From assembly GCA_900770945.1 (NCBI GenBank), contig CAAGME010000037.1, forward strand, positions 78,336 to 142,335: a stretch of 64,000 bases of DNA, written 5' to 3'. The first letter of the stretch is position 1, and the number at the start of each line of letters is the position of its first letter. Positions 4,087-55,701 of this stretch are shown in pieces. The stretch comes from Clostridia bacterium (GTDB taxonomy: Bacteria > Bacillota > Clostridia > Christensenellales > Borkfalkiaceae). The translations under genes were made by a program, and so were the position numbers. Below the pieces are notes generated by a model. The model ran no database searches, had not been told where the DNA came from, and worked only from the letters and a program-made list of their open reading frames with translations.

Positions 4087-7000
4087 TTAAATCTTTTTTA
4101 CGCCGACCGTCGCTTTTTCGCCGTTGACGTCAAGTTCCTTGACGAAGCCTTGCGGCTCGGCATTCTCGTAAGTTTCCGCAAGAACGGCTTTCTTTATGCC
4201 GTCTTTACGCGTTTCGAACGTTTTTAAAACTTCGCCGTCCGCCTTATAAGTCACGGCTATTCTGTCGGTCACGACAAAGCCGGCTTCCTTGCGCATGTTC
4301 TGTATTTTGGAGATGATTTCACGCTCTATTCCTTCATAAATAAGTTCGGGCGTGAGCGTTACGTCGAGAACGACGGTGTTGCCGTTTTCGCTTGCCGAAA
4401 CGTAACCTTCCTTGCTTTCGGTGGAAACGAGCAAATCGTCCTCGGTGAGTTCTACTACTTTGTCGTCGAAAGTTATCTTGTAAACTTCGCCTCTTCTGAC
4501 CGTTTTTACGACTTCGGAAGCGTCGCAAGTTTCAAAATACGCTCTTATCTTACCCAAAAGCGCGCCGTACTTGGGTCCGAGCGTTTTGAGCTGCGGCTTT
4601 ATCTTATACGAAATAAAGTCGGTAGCGTCCGTTAAAACTTCAAATTCTTTTACGTTGAGTTCGCCCTGCGCTATCTCGTAAAATTCGCCCGCAAGCGGTT
4701 TGCCGCCGCCCACCGAGAAGTAAAGTTTTTGCAGCGGTTGACGGTTTTTTATCTGCGAAGCGTTTCTCGCCGCTCTGCCGAGGACTACTATATCTTCGAC
4801 TTCTTCCATATCGGATTCAAGCTCGGTATCGATATATTTTTCGTCCGCCGTCGGGAAAGCGCAAAGATGTACCGATTCGGGCGCGTCTTTGAAAAACTCC
4901 GGCACGAGGTTCAGATAAATGCTTTCGGCGATGAACGGCGTGAACGGAGCCGTGAGTTTTGCAAAAGTTACGAGAGTGGTGTAAAGGGTGGTGTAAGCCG
5001 CCTTTTTGTCTTCCGTCATTCCTTCGCCCCAGTATCTCTCGCGCGAACGGCGGATATACCAGTTGGAAAGCTCGTCCACGAAGCTCTGCATAAGCCTTGC
5101 CGCCTCGAAAGTCTTGTACTCGGAAAGATATCCGTCCACCGCCTTAACGAGCGAATTAAGCTTAGACAAAAGCCATTTATCCATAATGGTAAGTTTGCAG
5201 TCGTCAAGCGTGTACTTTGACGGGTCGTATTTGTCTATTTCGGCATAAAGCACGAAGAATGCGTAAGCGTTCCATAGCGTACCCATGTACTTTGCCTGAC
5301 ATTCGCTGACGGCTTTCTCGTAAAATCTCGACGGAAGCCAGGGAGCCGAAGAAGTATAGAAATACCACCTTACGGCGTCCGCGCCCTGTTTGTTCAAAAC
5401 GGTCCACGGGTCGACTACATTGCCGAGGTGTTTTGACATTTTCAAACCTTTTTCGTCGTTGACGTGTCCCAAAACTATGCAGTTTTTGAACGCCGCTTTG
5501 CCGAAAAGCAAGGTGGAAATGGTCAAAAGCACGTAGAACCAGCCCCTCGTCTGGTCGATTGCCTCGCTGATAAAGTCCGCGGGGAAGTGCTTTTCGAAAA
5601 GTTCTTTGTTTTCGAACGGATAGTGGAACTGCGCAAAAGGCATGGAGCCCGAATCGAACCAGCAGTCGATTACTTCCTTTACCCTCTTCATTTTGCCGCC
5701 GCAATGGGGGCAGGTCATAGTCAGATTGTCGAGGAACGGGCGGTGAAGCTCTACGTCCTCTTTTAAGCCGCATTTTTCTTTTAATTCCGCGCGGCTACCG
5801 ACAACGTGGTACTTGCCGCAATCGGGGCAGACCCACACGGGAAGCGGCGTTCCCCAGTATCTCTCGCGCGAAAGACCCCAGTCTACGACGTTTTCGAGGA
5901 AGTTACCCATTCTGCCCGTTTTTATTGTCTCGGGCATCCAGTTGACGGAATCGTTTGATTTTAAGAGTTGTTCTTTTACCGCCGTCGTTTTTACGAACCA
6001 GCTCGAACGCGCGTAGTAGAGGAGCGGAGTGCCGCAACGCCAGCAGTGCGGATAGGAGTGTTCGTAAAGCATATCCTTGAAAAGAACGTTTCTTTCTTTC
6101 AATTCTTTTATAATAAGTTTGTCCGCGTCCTTAACGAACATGCCTTTATAAAGCGTTACTTCGTCCTTAAATCTGCCGCGGTCGTCTACCATCTGAACGA
6201 ACGGAAGATTGTATTTTTGACCGACTCTGCCGTCGTCCACGCCGAACGCCGGGGCGATATGGACTATGCCCGTGCCGTCGGTAAGCGTGACGTAATCGTC
6301 GCAAGTGACGAAAAACGCCTTTTCGCGGAATGAGCCGAGCGCGCAGTCGTACATAGGCTCGTATTCGGTGTACTCGTAGTCCGCGCCTTTCTTTACGCTC
6401 TTTACTTCGTAAGTTCCCTCTTCGAAAAGGGTCGGGATAAGGGCTTGGGCGAGAATGTACGTTTCGCCGCTCGATACTATTTCCGCATAATCCTCTTTTG
6501 CGTTCATACAGAGCGCGACGTTAGAAGGAAGCGTCCAAGGCGTCGTTGTCCAGACAAGAAAATACTTGTCTTCGCCTTTAAGCTTAAACTTGACGAAAAC
6601 AGATTTTTCCTTTACGTCCTTATACCCTTGCGCTACTTCGTGACTTGCGAGCGCGGTGCCGCAACGCGGGCAGTACGGAACGATTTTATAACCCTTATAT
6701 AATAAGCCCTTTTTGTCGATTTCCTTTAAAGCCCACCAGACGGACTCGATATAATCGTCATGGTAGGTAACGTACGGATGTTCCATATCCACCCAGTACG
6801 CGAGCCTTTCGCTCATTTCTTTCCATTCGTTGGAATATTTCCAGACGGATTTTTTGCATTCTTCGATGAACGGTTCTATTCCGTACTTTTCGATATCCTG
6901 CTTGCCGTCAAGTCCGAGTTTCTTTTCGATTTCAAGCTCCACGGGAAGCCCGTGCGTGTCCCAACCGGCTTTGCGGAGAACGTGCATGCCCTTCATCGTT

Positions 7001-50073: not shown

Positions 50074-51348
50074 ATGCGGGCGGCAAAAAGGAGCGTAAAT
50101 ATGATTGACGAAAGAAAACTCGAAATCTTAACGGAAAGCGCGAAGTACGACGTTTCGTGTTCGTCGTCCGGCTCTTCGAGAAAAAACGTTAAGGGCGGGG
50201 TCGGCAACGCAAGCTACGGCGGAATTTGCCATTCGTTTACGCAGGACGGGCGGTGCATATCGCTACTTAAAATCCTTTCGTCGAACAAATGCGTGTACGA
50301 CTGCTTATATTGCGTAAACCGCCGCAGCAACGACGTTCCGCGCGAGTCCGCCTCGCCCGAGGAGATTTGCGAGCTTGTCATGAATTTTTACAGGCGAAAC
50401 TACATAGAAGGGCTTTTCTTGTCCTCCGCGGTGGAACGCAGCCCCGACTACACTATGGAACGGCTTTTAGAAGTCGTAATGCGGCTAAGAAAGCTTTACT
50501 GTTTTCACGGGTACATTCACTTAAAAGGCATACCCGGGGCGAGTAAATATCTCTTAAACAAAGCCGCAAAATACGTTGACAGAATGAGTTGCAACATAGA
50601 GCTTCCGAGCGAGAAAAGCCTTAAACTTTTAGCTCCGCAAAAGTCAAAAACCGCGCTTATCGAGCCGATGGGAATGTTAGCGGAAAATTTGCGGCAAGCA
50701 AAAACGGAGCGCAACAAAAAGTTTTTGCCGGCAGGACAGACAACGCAAATGATTGTCGGGGCATCGCGCGAGACGGATGGGCAGATAATAAGGCTTACGC
50801 AGGCTTTATACAAAAAATTCGATATGAAGCGAGTGTATTTTTCATCGTATATCCCGACTAATTTTACTTCAAACCTCCTGCCCGCCCGCCCCGCCGGGCT
50901 TTTGCGCGAACACCGCCTTTATCAAGCCGACTGGTTAATGCGGTTTTACGGGTTCAGAGCCGACGAAATTTCCGACGAGAACGAAGACCTCGATTTAACG
51001 ATGGACCCCAAGTGCCGCTGGGCTTTGCGCCACCCCGAGTTTTTCCCGGTGGAAGTAAACGCCGCCCCGCCGGAAGTTTTGCTACGCGTTCCCGGGATAG
51101 GGTTCAAAAGCGCGTACAAGATAGTTTCCGCGCGGAGGTATTCCAAGCTTGATTTTTGCGACCTTGTCAAGCTCCGCGTGGTTTTAAAGCGAGCGGCGCA
51201 TTTTGTCACTTGCGGCGGCAAGTTCATCGGCGACGAAAAAAACGCTCAACGGCTTTTGCTTCTACCCGAAGCCGAGCAAAAATACGAACAACTGTCTCTC
51301 TTTTCTTCGCCGGAAATAAGCTTAAGCGCGTTAACGGGGCAGTTATGA
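50074..51348 (+). CDS. Putative DNA modification/repair radical SAM protein (TIGR03916-like)
   Basis: CVYDCLYC (Cx3Cx2C) radical SAM cluster motif; 424 aa; stop overlaps the start of the partner gene (ATGA). Confidence 0.75.
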   Translation: MRAAKRSVNMIDERKLEILTESAKYDVSCSSSGSSRKNVKGGVGNASYGGICHSFTQDGRCISLLKILSSNKCVYDCLYCVNRRSNDVPRESASPEEICELVMNFYRRNYIEGLFLSSAVERSPDYTMERLLEVVMRLRKLYCFHGYIHLKGIPGASKYLLNKAAKYVDRMSCNIELPSEKSLKLLAPQKSKTALIEPMGMLAENLRQAKTERNKKFLPAGQTTQMIVGASRETDGQIIRLTQALYKKFDMKRVYFSSYIPTNFTSNLLPARPAGLLREHRLYQADWLMRFYGFRADEISDENEDLDLTMDPKCRWALRHPEFFPVEVNAAPPEVLLRVPGIGFKSAYKIVSARRYSKLDFCDLVKLRVVLKRAAHFVTCGGKFIGDEKNAQRLLLLPEAEQKYEQLSLFSSPEISLSALTGQL

Positions 51349-52091
51349 TTTATTTCACAAAAAGCGGGCGCGACGGAATTTTGTGCGCTCTATACGAAAG
51401 CTTCACTCAAAAAGAATCCCCTTCCGCCGTGTATTCGTCAAGCTTTGCTCCCGTTATCGGTGAAGAGGTAAAAGAGATAGTTTTTGACAAAGAAAACGCC
51501 GTCAGAGTAAAAAAAGGCATTATCAAACACGGGGGTATAAGCCTGTTATCGGCACTTTTTTATCCTTTGCGTTCATATTCGGACGATAAAGAAACGGTGG
51601 TTTTCAAAGCCGCCGAGCGGTGCCTTGACATGCGGAAAAACGTCCTCGATAATTTTTCCGATAGGTTCGTTTTAAGGCATTACGAGCTTACAAAGCAAAT
51701 AAGTTACGAGGTTCACAGAATGGAAGGTTTTTTGCGTTTTGAAGAAGCCGAGGGCGGATATTATGCGCGCTTTACTCCCGACAACGACATTATAGACCTT
51801 GTCGCCCCGCACTTTAAAAGAAGATTTTCCGACGAAAAATTCATCATTCACGACATAAAGCGCAACAAGCTTTGCTTTTTCGACGGCGAAGCCCTGCATT
51901 TTTTAAAACCCGATAAGCCCGTCACGGTGTATTTGACGGCAAACGAGCAAGCTTATTCTTCGCTTTGGAAAAAATATTTTAAGGCGGTAAGCATAGCGGA
52001 GCGCAAAAACGAACGCTTACAAGACAATTGGCTTCCTCGCCGCTACCGCGCCACCATGTTGGAATTCTCCCCTCCCGAAAACTTTAACTAA
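51345..52091 (+). CDS. Probable DNA metabolism protein, uracil-DNA-glycosylase-superfamily (TIGR03915-like) partner of the radical SAM protein
   Basis: Start reset to MIYFTKSG at 51345 (4-nt overlap with the upstream stop); 248 aa; conserved pairing with the TIGR03916 radical SAM. Confidence 0.65.
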   Translation: MIYFTKSGRDGILCALYESFTQKESPSAVYSSSFAPVIGEEVKEIVFDKENAVRVKKGIIKHGGISLLSALFYPLRSYSDDKETVVFKAAERCLDMRKNVLDNFSDRFVLRHYELTKQISYEVHRMEGFLRFEEAEGGYYARFTPDNDIIDLVAPHFKRRFSDEKFIIHDIKRNKLCFFDGEALHFLKPDKPVTVYLTANEQAYSSLWKKYFKAVSIAERKNERLQDNWLPRRYRATMLEFSPPENFN

Positions 52092-52524
52092 AAAAATTTT
52101 CGGTCGATGTTTTTTTAGAGCCGGCTTTCGCCCCTCCACTCAAAAACAATCGACCGATTTTTTTTGGTTTTTAATCGTTCGCCCTTTGTCCGCTTATAAG
52201 CAACTCCGGCATAATGGTAGCATTTAAAATTACTTAGACCTAAAACCTCAAATCCGAGATTTCGGTAACGGAAAATAGCGATTCCGATAACTTTAAACAC
52301 TTAAAAGGTATAACCACAAGTATATTTTATCGTTAATTTTGTTGTTTAACAAGCAAACCGATTTAAAAACATATTCAAAAAAAATCTTCATCAACGCACA
52401 AGAGCGTTTCGTCCGAGATTTTTTCTTTTGTGACGATGTTATCGACAAGCACCATCGAAACACCGATTTATCTTGCGAATCGATTTATGGTTCACAACCA
52501 TTTTTTCTCTATCAACAAATATTA

Positions 52525-52620
52525 ACGTAAGATATGCAGGAATCGTTTGGCAAACGCCTCCTGCGTAATGTCTATCGGGTTATCGTCCCACATTGTATCA
52601 AGTATCTTATTTTTGCTCAT
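52525..52620 (-). CDS. Candidate 32-aa small ORF downstream of the ASCH gene
   Basis: MSKNKILDTMWDDNPIDITQEAFAKRFLHILR, preceded by a strong RBS AGGAGAG with an 8-nt spacer, 44 nt downstream of the ASCH stop; no homology recognised. Confidence 0.25.
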
Positions 52621-52664
52621 TTATAAAACTCTCCTGATGATTTTTCTACTTTCAATTGATGTTT

Positions 52665-53036
52665 TTAAATGTATACGAAGGATTGCGGCGCGGATTTAAT
52701 GCCGTATTCCAATAAAGTTTTAGGCTCATCATAAACTTTAATTTTGCCTAATTTATAAGCGTAGGCAATTTCTTTTCCCTCAAAATACTCATCGAAAAAT
52801 GCTTTGCTGATGCCGGATTCTTCTTTTGTAAGTTTCCACAATTCTTCAGGCGAATACATTAAAACGTCTATAATTTCTGCTTCTGCAACAATTCTTTTTA
52901 CGGGAGTGGTTTCGTAAATAACGATGGAAGTAATATCTTGTTTTGCTGCAATTTTTCTATATTCGTATTTCTTGATGCCTTTAATAATATTTTGCACGTG
53001 CTCAGGGTTGATGGATATTAATATTTTCTTTTTCAT
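52665..53036 (-). CDS. Standalone ASCH (PUA-like) domain protein, YqfB-like
   Basis: 123 aa. ILISINPEHVQNIIKGIKKYEYRK matches the ASCH N-terminal G-x-K-x-x-E-x-R signature. Start codon sits 3 nt after the stop of the 618-aa gene, with its GGAGG RBS inside that gene's end. Confidence 0.7.
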   Translation of the reverse strand: MKKKILISINPEHVQNIIKGIKKYEYRKIAAKQDITSIVIYETTPVKRIVAEAEIIDVLMYSPEELWKLTKEESGISKAFFDEYFEGKEIAYAYKLGKIKVYDEPKTLLEYGIKSAPQSFVYI

Positions 53037-53039
53037 TTT

Positions 53040-54896
53040 TTATTCCTCCATTCCTAATTTATAAATAGTGTCAAATTGCTCTTGGGTTATAAACGTAAAC
53101 GGGCGCGGTCCTGAATACTTATCTAAAACACCGTAATCTCTTAATTCGTTTAATGTAACCTTATGATTAAATGGTTTGTAATCTAAAATCGTTACTACGG
53201 TAGAATATTTACTATATACAGCTCGGATATCTTTTTCATTGAAAATTGATTTATCCTTACAAATACTTATACACTCTTCGACGTTCTTAGTTTTTATGAC
53301 TTCTTGAACAATCGCCATACCGGTAACCACCGAAGAGTAATTTTTGTACAACCCTTCTCCCATTCTATAAATTAAAACCATGTCTCCCACTTTTGCCGGA
53401 ATATTAAACGCTCCCGTTAAATATATCTTCTCGATTGCATATCTATGAGCAAGGTTATCTTCATATAAATGCATATCTTCGTTCTTCAAAATATTATCAG
53501 GAAATAAATCCGTATGATATTTAGCATAAATAGGAAGAAAGTAATGATTTCGATCCTTTTTCAAAATAGGATAATTGAACTTTGGCGTTTCAGCATCGTT
53601 ATACTGTTTCATATCTTTTACAAGCACTAATTCGCCGTTCGATTTCTTATAGCCGTGCTTAACAAAACCCCATTGTTCCATTATACTTTTTAATGCGCAA
53701 ACTTCCTGCCTTTTATCTTCAAAAAGCGTTACATACGCTTCATCAACATTCCACTTGACAGCATTCTCAAAAATAATCTTTAAGAAACGTTCTCCCAAAC
53801 GGAAACCTGTGCGCTCGATCTTAAAAGTTCCAACTTTTAATCTTCTTTTCGGAGATAATATGGGCTCTATATCAGAATAGTTTTCGTTTTCATCTTCTAT
53901 TTTAAGATATAAAAAGCCTTTTAATTTTTCGTCATTATCTTCAAAAACGTATGCTTTTTCATTGCCTTTTTTCTTAAACCAATCATCAAACTTTTTTCCT
54001 TCATAATCTTCTCTTAGAGTATCAAAGAAAGAGCTGTTTATATCCACCTCGTCGAATCGTTTTAATTTAACCGCAAGCATTTTGTATTCAATGTTTTTTG
54101 GATACGTCCTTTCAAAATACTCTAACAGTTCAGCAGATGTAACGACTTTATCTCTGATAAACAAATCTTTTGCTTTTTTCAAGATTGCGTTATCATCGGT
54201 AAGCAGAATACCAACATTATCATTATATACTTCTAAAAGTAAAGCATTATCAATTTTGCTATTTGCATCTTGCGAATATTGATTCACAATATGTTCAAAG
54301 TAATCATCTTTTTCTGAAGTGAACGAAGGCAAGATGTCATAAGAACTTGCTTTAGCAAGCATTGCATTTTTTACTTTCTCGTCTTTATGCGATTCCAATT
54401 CCCCTATAGTGCTTTTATGTAGATATTTCTTTAATTGTTTTTTATCGAACCATTTAAACAAGTTGCTTATCTCGAACGAAACATTATTACTGCTTTCTCT
54501 TTTAATAAAAATATTTGTATCAAGCAAAATACTTGATTTTGAATAGTCAATATATAACGGCTCTATTTCAAATGCGACGATTCCGTAACGGTCAACTTCA
54601 TCTTTAGAATAAAATTTATAACACTCTTTTAAAGTAGCGTCTAATGAAGTGAAAATGTTTTTAAAATCTTGTTCCCAATTTTCAATTAAAGCTTCATTCC
54701 ACGAACTATAAACTTTAATTCCTTTTATAGTTGCTCTAACGAAGTAATCTTTATTTTGATTTGATATCAAAACGAAAGTGTCGCCCACTTTTGCCTGCAT
54801 CCTTTCAGGCGACGCTAACCGATATTCGTGTTTTTTTACTCTGTTTTTAATGTCGCTTATAAATTTATCTCTAATTTTTAAATAATATGTTTTCAT
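53040..54896 (-). CDS. Multidomain fusion protein: ASCH (aa 1-115), PIN nuclease (~120-265), GNAT acetyltransferase (~305-430), C-terminal PUA-like/EVE-like beta-barrel (~440-618)
   Basis: N-terminus LKIRDKFISDIKNRVKKHEYRL (ASCH-like). SILLDTNIFI…GELES…GILLTDDNAIL (PIN acidic quartet). VGTFKIERTGFRLGERFLKIIFENA and ALKSIMEQWGFVKHGY (GNAT motifs A and B). C-terminal KVGDMVLIYRMGEG…VVTGMAIVQEV (EVE/PUA-like). AT-rich codon usage unlike the neighbours. Confidence 0.6.
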   Translation of the reverse strand: MKTYYLKIRDKFISDIKNRVKKHEYRLASPERMQAKVGDTFVLISNQNKDYFVRATIKGIKVYSSWNEALIENWEQDFKNIFTSLDATLKECYKFYSKDEVDRYGIVAFEIEPLYIDYSKSSILLDTNIFIKRESSNNVSFEISNLFKWFDKKQLKKYLHKSTIGELESHKDEKVKNAMLAKASSYDILPSFTSEKDDYFEHIVNQYSQDANSKIDNALLLEVYNDNVGILLTDDNAILKKAKDLFIRDKVVTSAELLEYFERTYPKNIEYKMLAVKLKRFDEVDINSSFFDTLREDYEGKKFDDWFKKKGNEKAYVFEDNDEKLKGFLYLKIEDENENYSDIEPILSPKRRLKVGTFKIERTGFRLGERFLKIIFENAVKWNVDEAYVTLFEDKRQEVCALKSIMEQWGFVKHGYKKSNGELVLVKDMKQYNDAETPKFNYPILKKDRNHYFLPIYAKYHTDLFPDNILKNEDMHLYEDNLAHRYAIEKIYLTGAFNIPAKVGDMVLIYRMGEGLYKNYSSVVTGMAIVQEVIKTKNVEECISICKDKSIFNEKDIRAVYSKYSTVVTILDYKPFNHKVTLNELRDYGVLDKYSGPRPFTFITQEQFDTIYKLGMEE

Positions 54897-54973
54897 TTAT
54901 TATTCTCTCAATTTATCCTAAAAAGTATAAGTTTCTTTTTCTTCTCTAAGTTCTTTCAATATAAGCATATTTT

Positions 54974-55192
54974 TTAAACTTTAAAATAATCGTCAAGCCC
55001 TAAAAGGTAATCCGCGCTTTCGTTGAGCAATTTGCATAGGTTAAACAACACTTCGACCGACGGCAAGTTTTCACCGTTTTTCCAATTCGTAATATTGCTT
55101 TCGGAAATATTCAACTTTTCGGCGATTTCCTTTTGAGAAAGCCCGCTGCTTTTTATCGCTTCTGCAATTCTTTCGCTAAACTTCATAATCAC
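54974..55192 (-). CDS. XRE-family helix-turn-helix transcriptional regulator
   Basis: 72 aa; LSQKEIAEKLNISESNITNWKNGENLPSVEVLFNLCKLL is a canonical HTH_XRE. Confidence 0.8.
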   Translation of the reverse strand: MIMKFSERIAEAIKSSGLSQKEIAEKLNISESNITNWKNGENLPSVEVLFNLCKLLNESADYLLGLDDYFKV

Positions 55193-55293
55193 AATTACAC
55201 CTCATTTTTAATTCAGTTTAACAGAATTAAATGCGAAATTGTTGACATTTCAGTCTTACTGAAGTATAATTAACACACACAGGGAGATTTATT

Positions 55294-55650
55294 ATGTTTT
55301 GTAAAAATTGCGGAAAGGAAGTTGACGAAAAGGCTTACGTTTGCATACATTGCGGGTGCAAGATAGAGAGCAAAGAAGAAAAAACGGAAAATAACGTTTT
55401 TGAGAGTTTATCGCAAGCGTTTTCGGTTATCGCGCTTGTAGGGATTTTAGTTTATATTATTTTTTCCGACGCAAAAAACGCCTTGCTTGTTTTAAAAATA
55501 GCGAGCTTGGGCGGCACTATTGCGGCTTTTATCGGCGCGGTTTTCGGGAAAATAAAAAACGACGACGATAGCAATTTTTTCCACAATATCGTTGAATTTC
55601 TTATTTGCATAGCTTTGATTTTTAAAACTTTAATAAATTTTTCGGAATAA
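55294..55650 (+). CDS. Zinc-ribbon membrane protein (N-terminal CxxC…CxxC, then 2-3 TM helices)
   Basis: MFCKNCGKEVDEKAYVCIHCGC followed by hydrophobic helices; divergent from the HTH gene; terminator ctcggg…cccgag plus a T-run at 55654-55700. Confidence 0.55.
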   Translation: MFCKNCGKEVDEKAYVCIHCGCKIESKEEKTENNVFESLSQAFSVIALVGILVYIIFSDAKNALLVLKIASLGGTIAAFIGAVFGKIKNDDDSNFFHNIVEFLICIALIFKTLINFSE

Positions 55651-55701
55651 AAAACTCGGGAATCATTAGCGACGAAACCCGAGTAAATTATTTTTTTCTT
55701 T

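Follow-up and report, generated by a model that had tools for sequence, protein, structure and literature searches.

A window of 64,000 nucleotides (positions 78,336 to 142,335 of contig CAAGME010000037.1, assembly GCA_900770945.1) from a bacterium of the class Clostridia carries a gene for a 618-residue protein, hereafter the effector, that is a fusion of four domains: ASCH, PIN nuclease, GNAT acetyltransferase and an EVE-like reader. It is the middle member of a three-gene module on the minus strand, preceded by a gene for an XRE-type helix-turn-helix (HTH) protein and followed by one for a stand-alone ASCH protein of 123 residues, the partner. On profile matches and gene order, the module is assigned to the (PIN)-GNAT-EVE + ASCH system, candidate PDC-M11 of PADLOC, and does not represent a system of a new kind; what appears to be new is only the extra N-terminal ASCH domain, which marks a variant seemingly specific to Bacillota. 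The module is horizontally mobile and tied to restriction-modification (RM) genes and mobile elements. We see about an even chance that it is a mobile toxin-antitoxin-like or abortive-infection defence system, composed of an effector guided by a modified base, an ASCH antagonist and an HTH repressor.

The effector gene opens with an ATG, and 618 consecutive sense codons would arise by chance with a probability of ~4e-24 at the local base composition (guanine-plus-cytosine (GC) content ~0.32). PADLOC profile PDC-M11A matches the protein with E=5e-152, residues 123-615 being aligned to profile positions 3-492 of 501. NCBIfam profiles gave no match to the effector, and a search of PDB sequences with its full-length profile returned ASCH entries only. 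The AlphaFold2 model of the protein has a mean pLDDT score (predicted local distance difference test) of 78.8. At least 1,222 relatives came up in a protein search; of these, the best 120 listed are nearly all full-length (611-636 residues), with 62-100% identity. For comparative purposes we used a set of 80 species-level loci, one genome per species, to which the locus counts below refer. A preliminary description of the sequence had proposed the ASCH-PIN-GNAT-EVE architecture from its motifs and had allowed that the protein might be a frameshifted composite of separate genes. The four folds were confirmed, and a composite or a set of chance motifs is ruled out by the full-length relatives, by the low chance expectation and by 52 species-level loci in which the fused open reading frame (ORF) of ~618 codons is uninterrupted.

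The motifs on which that description relied lie where it implied: SILLDTNIFI at residues 122-131, GELES at 165-169 and TDD at 233-235 for the PIN domain, RTGFRLGERFL at 362-372 and WGFVKHGY at 409-416 for the GNAT domain, and VGDMVLIY at 503-510 and VVTGMAIVQEV at 523-533 for the C-terminal barrel. Its N-terminal ASCH-type motif stood in part. The stretch VKKHEYR (residues 20-26) is present, but the glycine that it read at the head of the octapeptide (consensus GxKxxExR) is Arg19 in the effector; Gly occupies position 19 in most relatives of 62-69% identity. K21, E24, Y25 and R26 of this domain are at least 95% conserved, as are the catalytic-type residues of the PIN, GNAT and both ASCH domains generally, and those of the GNAT domain are among the most conserved positions of the effector. 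The order of the remaining domains, with a PIN domain bearing conserved acidic residues ahead of a central GNAT domain and a C-terminal EVE domain, is that of PDC-M11. The effector differs from PDC-M11 in the extra PH0355-type ASCH domain at the N-terminus, the profile starting only at residue 123.

The N-terminal ASCH domain is 33% identical to PH0355. The nearest structures to the PIN domain are tRNA-cleaving VapC toxins, although sequence identity to VapC-family PIN toxins (VapC21 and VapC15 of M. tuberculosis, and Shigella VapC) is only 7-16%. VapBC systems consist of a stand-alone PIN toxin and VapB, whereas the PIN domain here is one part of a 618-residue protein and no VapB-like gene is present. 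For the C-terminal domain, a search of PDB sequences with its profile gave no match, and structure searches ranked ZmASCH above EVE structures. The possibility that this domain is a third ASCH was considered and found no sequence support (Pfam ASCH matches in 0 of 52; hhalign probability 2-3%).

The stand-alone partner matches PADLOC profile PDC-M11B with E=6e-40, Pfam ASCH above threshold with E=1.6e-5, and the structurally solved ZmASCH (5guq) with E=1e-7. Across 76 sequences, conservation of its octapeptide residues G20, K22, E25 and R27 is 99-100%, that of the Lys and Glu being 100%. Homology between the fused and the free ASCH shows only when profiles are compared (hhalign 90%, E=1.7e-6). 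An origin of the N-terminal domain as a copy of the partner gene was rejected: BLASTP aligns the octapeptide only, with E=0.022, and the subfamilies differ, one being PH0355-like and the other ZmASCH-like. As judged from these comparisons, the system combines ASCH domains of two distinct subtypes with an EVE-like domain. The partner gene starts with an ATG 3 nt past the effector stop codon, its GGAGG ribosome-binding site lies within the 3' end of the effector gene, and it is translationally coupled to the latter. The HTH gene is situated 77 nt upstream of the effector gene. Coordinates are collected in Table 1.

Table 1. Features of the module and its surroundings, in positions of the window (aa, amino acids).
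Feature	Position	Strand	Basis
Low-GC island carrying the module	52170..55690	.	Composition profiles
Remnant of type I RM gene hsdM, 32 codons, downstream of partner	52522..52620	-	Comparison with locus L022
Partner gene, stand-alone ASCH protein, 123 aa (PDC-M11B; GevA- and ZmASCH-like)	52665..53036	-	PADLOC, Pfam, match to ZmASCH
Effector gene, 618 aa, ASCH-PIN-GNAT-EVE (PADLOC PDC-M11A-like)	53040..54896	-	ORF list and PADLOC
Effector domain 4, EVE-like PUA-superfamily beta-barrel, residues 436-618	53043..53591	-	
Effector domain 3, GNAT-fold acetyltransferase domain, residues 274-430	53607..54077	-	beta4-alpha3 loop R362-L372 = deviant motif A
Effector domain 2, VapC-like PIN nuclease domain, residues 120-265	54102..54539	-	Acidic D126, E166, D216, D234/D235
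Effector domain 1, ASCH of PH0355/PF0455 type, residues 1-115	54552..54896	-	Octapeptide R19-x-K21-x-x-E24-Y25-R26
XRE/Cro-type HTH regulator gene, 70-72 aa (ATG 55186 or GTG 55192)	54974..55192	-	Pfam HTH_3 E=1.8e-14
Divergent control region	55193..55293	.	Promoter scan and direct sequence reading

The family was described as a putative toxin-antitoxin or defence system by Bell, Wolf and Koonin (2020, BMC Biol 18:159), who found PIN-GNAT-EVE near type I RM genes and GNAT-EVE in prophages, and noted that none of the modules had been characterised; their text makes no mention of the ASCH-PIN-GNAT-EVE fusion. PDC-M11 itself was derived by “guilt-by-embedding” as one of 145 candidates (Payne et al. 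2024 preprint). Three architectures, of ~618, ~500 and ~350 residues, occur among 1.84 billion representative proteins. The ASCH-fused form accounts for 52 of the 80 species-level loci, those named to a taxon being nearly all Bacillota or Mollicutes-like and mostly from gut or rumen, and the unfused PIN-GNAT-EVE form (~500 residues) for the other 28, which come from many phyla and include one archaeon. In nearly all loci of the fused form, and in most of the unfused form, a small ASCH gene follows the effector gene, the gap being -29 to +15 nt. The N-terminal domain is therefore an addition and not a replacement, and the idea that it substitutes for the stand-alone protein is ruled out. With PDC-M11 in general, the window module has in common the PIN-GNAT-EVE core order, the ASCH gene immediately downstream and the setting of mobile elements and type I RM. 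It differs from the unfused operons in that an AAA_17 P-loop gene, often present there, is absent from the window (it is frequent but not obligatory in PDC-M11 operons), and a small XRE HTH gene stands upstream instead. Such an HTH gene lies directly upstream in most ASCH-fused loci.

The mobility of the module is evident from its distribution, which is patchy, its carriers including integrative or conjugative elements, phages and plasmids. The order HTH, effector, ASCH of 123-125 residues is kept in four independent lineages at 63-80% identity, and in these the module is part of elements that encode integrases, relaxases, serine recombinases or TnpV, in one lineage beside a type I hsdM/hsdS shufflon. 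An hsdM-like gene is found within 6 kb of the module in 16 of the 80 loci. None of the other species-level loci shares the flanking genes of the window. Separately, four loci with the unfused form, from Bacteroidota and Elusimicrobia (L076, L079, L083 and L087; ~4990-5995, plus strand), encode a conserved protein of ~332-345 residues whose gene shares 4 nt with the start of PIN-GNAT-EVE. The C-terminus of this protein is hydrophobic, Pfam gives no match to it, and the protein may be a fourth component that has escaped recognition.

Among phage records, the GNAT-EVE part of the effector (residues 269-615) is 34.7% identical to a gene of lambdoid coliphages (tblastn, E=1e-40). This gene and its neighbour are annotated as “GevT toxin” and “GevA antitoxin” in PV340567.1 (locus L092, 3001-4429), where they lie between cI and kil; the partner ASCH is 41% identical to GevA (125 residues; E=4e-33). 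Both partners are thus homologous and stand in the same order, again as overlapping or closely coupled genes, but the phage-borne GevT, a GNAT-EVE protein of 357 residues, lacks the PIN and N-terminal ASCH domains of the effector. Lambda carries rexAB between cI and kil, and by analogy the position of the GevT/GevA pair would suggest a prophage-encoded exclusion function. A further phage homologue, of the PIN-GNAT part (residues 123-511, 26.8% identity), is ORFD of the “inserted fragment IFa” of Methanothermobacter phage psiM100 (8239-9417; phage hits H12/H13).

Within the window, the module sits on an island of ~3.5 kb with a GC content of 0.28-0.39 against 0.43-0.55 in the flanks, placed between a DUF4130/radical-SAM pair and rlmL. 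The exact sequence is also present in assembly GCA_902463295.1. No tRNA genes were found in the window, and no direct repeats flank the island ends. Over its first 22 residues, a remnant downstream of the partner gene has 91% identity to the N-terminus of a 422-residue HsdM_N + N6_Mtase protein encoded at the same position in locus L022 (also in L012-L014). From this match it appears that the hsdM neighbour was deleted in the window, and the RM association lost here, while the gene triad remained intact. The surroundings of the island are, on one side, genes for the radical-SAM protein (424 residues) and the DUF4130 protein (50074-52091, plus strand), and on the other an ordinary translation-related neighbourhood of rlmL, rnhB, a ylqF-like GTPase gene, trmD and rimM. 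Just past the DUF4130 gene, where the GC content falls, there is an imperfect 27-nt inverted repeat (52092-52165; 78% complementary, 20-nt loop), which may be a bidirectional terminator or a mark of the island boundary.

At the other end of the module, a promoter scan of the control region detected TTGACA-17-TATAAT, matching the sigma-70 consensus at 12 of 12 positions (plus strand, 55242-55270). As positioned, this promoter would drive a gene at 55294-55650 (plus strand), still inside the low-GC island, for a protein of 118 residues that has a zinc ribbon at its N-terminus and for which two membrane helices are predicted; this gene is not kept beside the module in any other of the species-level loci. 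Inside the promoter spacer is the palindrome TTCAGTCTTACTGAA, and there is an extra TTCAGT half-site at ~55213. The palindrome region is probably the operator for the HTH protein, perhaps shared with the divergent HTH gene.

Starting from the observed domain identities, catalytic-type residues, gene triad and mobile, RM-adjacent setting, we infer target, chemistry, direction of antagonism and defence phenotype as follows. With its PUA-like domains (EVE and ASCH) recognising a modified base, the effector would dock on nucleic acid and would damage its target through acetylation by the GNAT domain and/or cleavage by the PIN domain. The target would most probably be tRNA or another RNA, which is favoured because precedents on tRNA exist for VapC-type PIN domains, for ASCH enzymes and for GNAT toxins, the last of which act on charged tRNA (Bell et al. 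2020). The stand-alone ASCH may restrain the effector, either by hydrolysing an acetyl mark, its octapeptide having the K/E/R residues unchanged, or by binding to the effector or to the substrate of the latter, and the HTH protein would repress the operon. This arrangement differs from that of type II GNAT toxins (AtaT/TacT/ItaT), which pair with a DNA-binding antitoxin (ribbon-helix-helix or HTH) that attaches to the toxin, whereas here the coupled partner is an ASCH protein and the HTH gene is separate and upstream.

An acetyl circuit with GNAT as putative writer and ASCH as putative eraser is plausible. A February 2026 preprint reports in vitro removal of N4-acetylcytidine (ac4C) from tRNA by 19 ASCH proteins, GKER-type ones included, for which Lys and Glu of the octapeptide, both kept in the two ASCH modules of the present system, were essential. 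Like the ac4C amidohydrolases YqfB and TthASCH, and ZmASCH and PH0355, both modules are of GKER type with Lys, Glu and Arg retained, deacetylation by them being a prediction; they co-occur with a GNAT domain, a combination not studied in the ASCH enzymology papers examined. Carried to its full extent, the module would be a self-contained immunity circuit based on an acetyl mark, in which the GNAT domain places an N-acetyl group on a nucleobase (N4-acetylcytosine being one example, whether in tRNA, other RNA or DNA), a modified base is read by the EVE-like domain, the PIN domain cuts the marked or the unmarked molecule, and the two ASCH amidohydrolases, fused and free, erase the mark and so protect the host. 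We regard this complete version as possible but unlikely.

Several points weigh against the proposed defence function and its chemistry. The GNAT motif A (T363-G364-F-R366-L-G368) departs from the Q/RxxGxG/A pattern, which makes acetyl-CoA use uncertain. The full-length model of the effector has a predicted template modelling (pTM) score of 0.45, too low to define the packing of the domains. PDC-M11 is explicitly among the untested candidates of the Payne et al. preprint, and the literature searched contained no experiment on any member of the PIN-GNAT-EVE + ASCH family. The names GevT and GevA are a depositor's database label, for which no paper was found in the same literature. Among solved structures the closest relative of the partner is ZmASCH, which left free ac4C unhydrolysed and did not lower ac4C in vivo, its activity being on tRNA in vitro only (February 2026 preprint). 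The HTH-ASCH fusions and the ASCH-HsdS fusion reported by Bell et al. (2020), which suggest DNA binding, favour DNA over RNA as target when taken with the proposal of DNA-base acetylation that those authors credit to Iyer et al. (2013, NAR 41:7635). Finally, with the type I RM neighbour gone, the module could no longer be coupled to RM as a guard in the window.

The main rival of the toxin-antitoxin-like reading was proposed in its essentials by Iyer et al., as reported by Bell et al. (2020). Here the GNAT domain would acetylate the exocyclic amine of a DNA base, either as a mark of self or as damage to an invader, the EVE and ASCH domains would read or erase the mark, and the nuclease would cut DNA in the wrong state, much as in restriction-modification. 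Besides the ASCH fusions, this explanation gains from the proximity of type I RM genes in the 16 loci mentioned and from the hsdM remnant in the window, from the EVE domains of known restriction enzymes, which in the accounts consulted read modified DNA bases, and from a 2026 preprint on an ASCH-fold glycosylase that acts on 5-hydroxymethylcytosine (5hmC) in DNA and serves defence. However, the PIN domain is most like VapC RNases, and Bell et al. (2020) argue that PIN implies RNA; moreover, the module is intact in the window without RM genes, and includes no helicase or translocase. We consider DNA-base acetylation rather unlikely.

Known EVE restriction enzymes of type IV (the VcaM4I type) use HNH, PD-(D/E)XK, PLD or GIY-YIG nucleases and not PIN (Bell et al. 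2020), in contrast to the effector, and this counts against a second explanation, in which the protein is a modification-dependent nuclease free of toxin-antitoxin logic. The EVE and ASCH domains would then only sense hypermodified phage nucleic acid for degradation by the PIN domain, the GNAT domain would serve regulation or have no activity, and the role of the small ASCH protein would be that of an extra specificity subunit. The fusion of EVE to a nuclease is an established type IV restriction architecture, and three PUA-like modules per system suggest a broad sensing of modified bases; the strong conservation of the GNAT residues nevertheless argues for catalysis, and the phage GNAT-EVE core, which is annotated as a toxin, has no nuclease at all. 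We hold this to be slightly less likely than DNA-base acetylation.

A housekeeping enzyme of RNA modification or turnover, for example a writer, eraser and quality-control nuclease for an acetyl mark on tRNA with no role in conflict, would agree with the occurrence of PUA-like, GNAT (as in TmcA/NAT10) and PIN domains in RNA maturation, and with neighbours that include rlmL, trmD, rimM and rnhB. It is very improbable in view of the low-GC island, the different neighbours in every other species, the patchy distribution and carriage on mobile elements and phages, and the match to a PADLOC defence-candidate profile. An artefact, as frameshifted composite or chance likeness of motifs, found no support and is practically negligible given the relatives, uninterrupted loci, folds and chance expectation set out above.

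The (PIN)-GNAT-EVE + ASCH family has been known computationally since 2013 and occurs widely, in bacteria, archaea, phages and plasmids, and the variant described here joins a putative writer (GNAT), reader (EVE), nuclease (PIN) and ASCH domain in one polypeptide beside a second ASCH protein. DarT and DarG form a reversible toxin-antitoxin pair that modifies nucleic acid by ADP-ribosylation. The possible logic of a writer toxin and an eraser antitoxin would be alike, by analogy only, acetylation taking the place of ADP-ribosylation and the folds being unrelated. If the acetyl-mark circuit is real, it would be a DarTG-like system of reversible base modification that works by acetylation, and the first case in nature of one operon pairing an acetyl writer for nucleobases with an ASCH eraser. 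With the 2026 report of ac4C removal from tRNA by ASCH proteins, the family offers a concrete testing ground for reversible nucleobase acetylation in phage defence or toxin-antitoxin systems. Should the module be an ordinary toxin-antitoxin pair, it would be one more such family; either way, it is well suited to a first biochemical characterisation.

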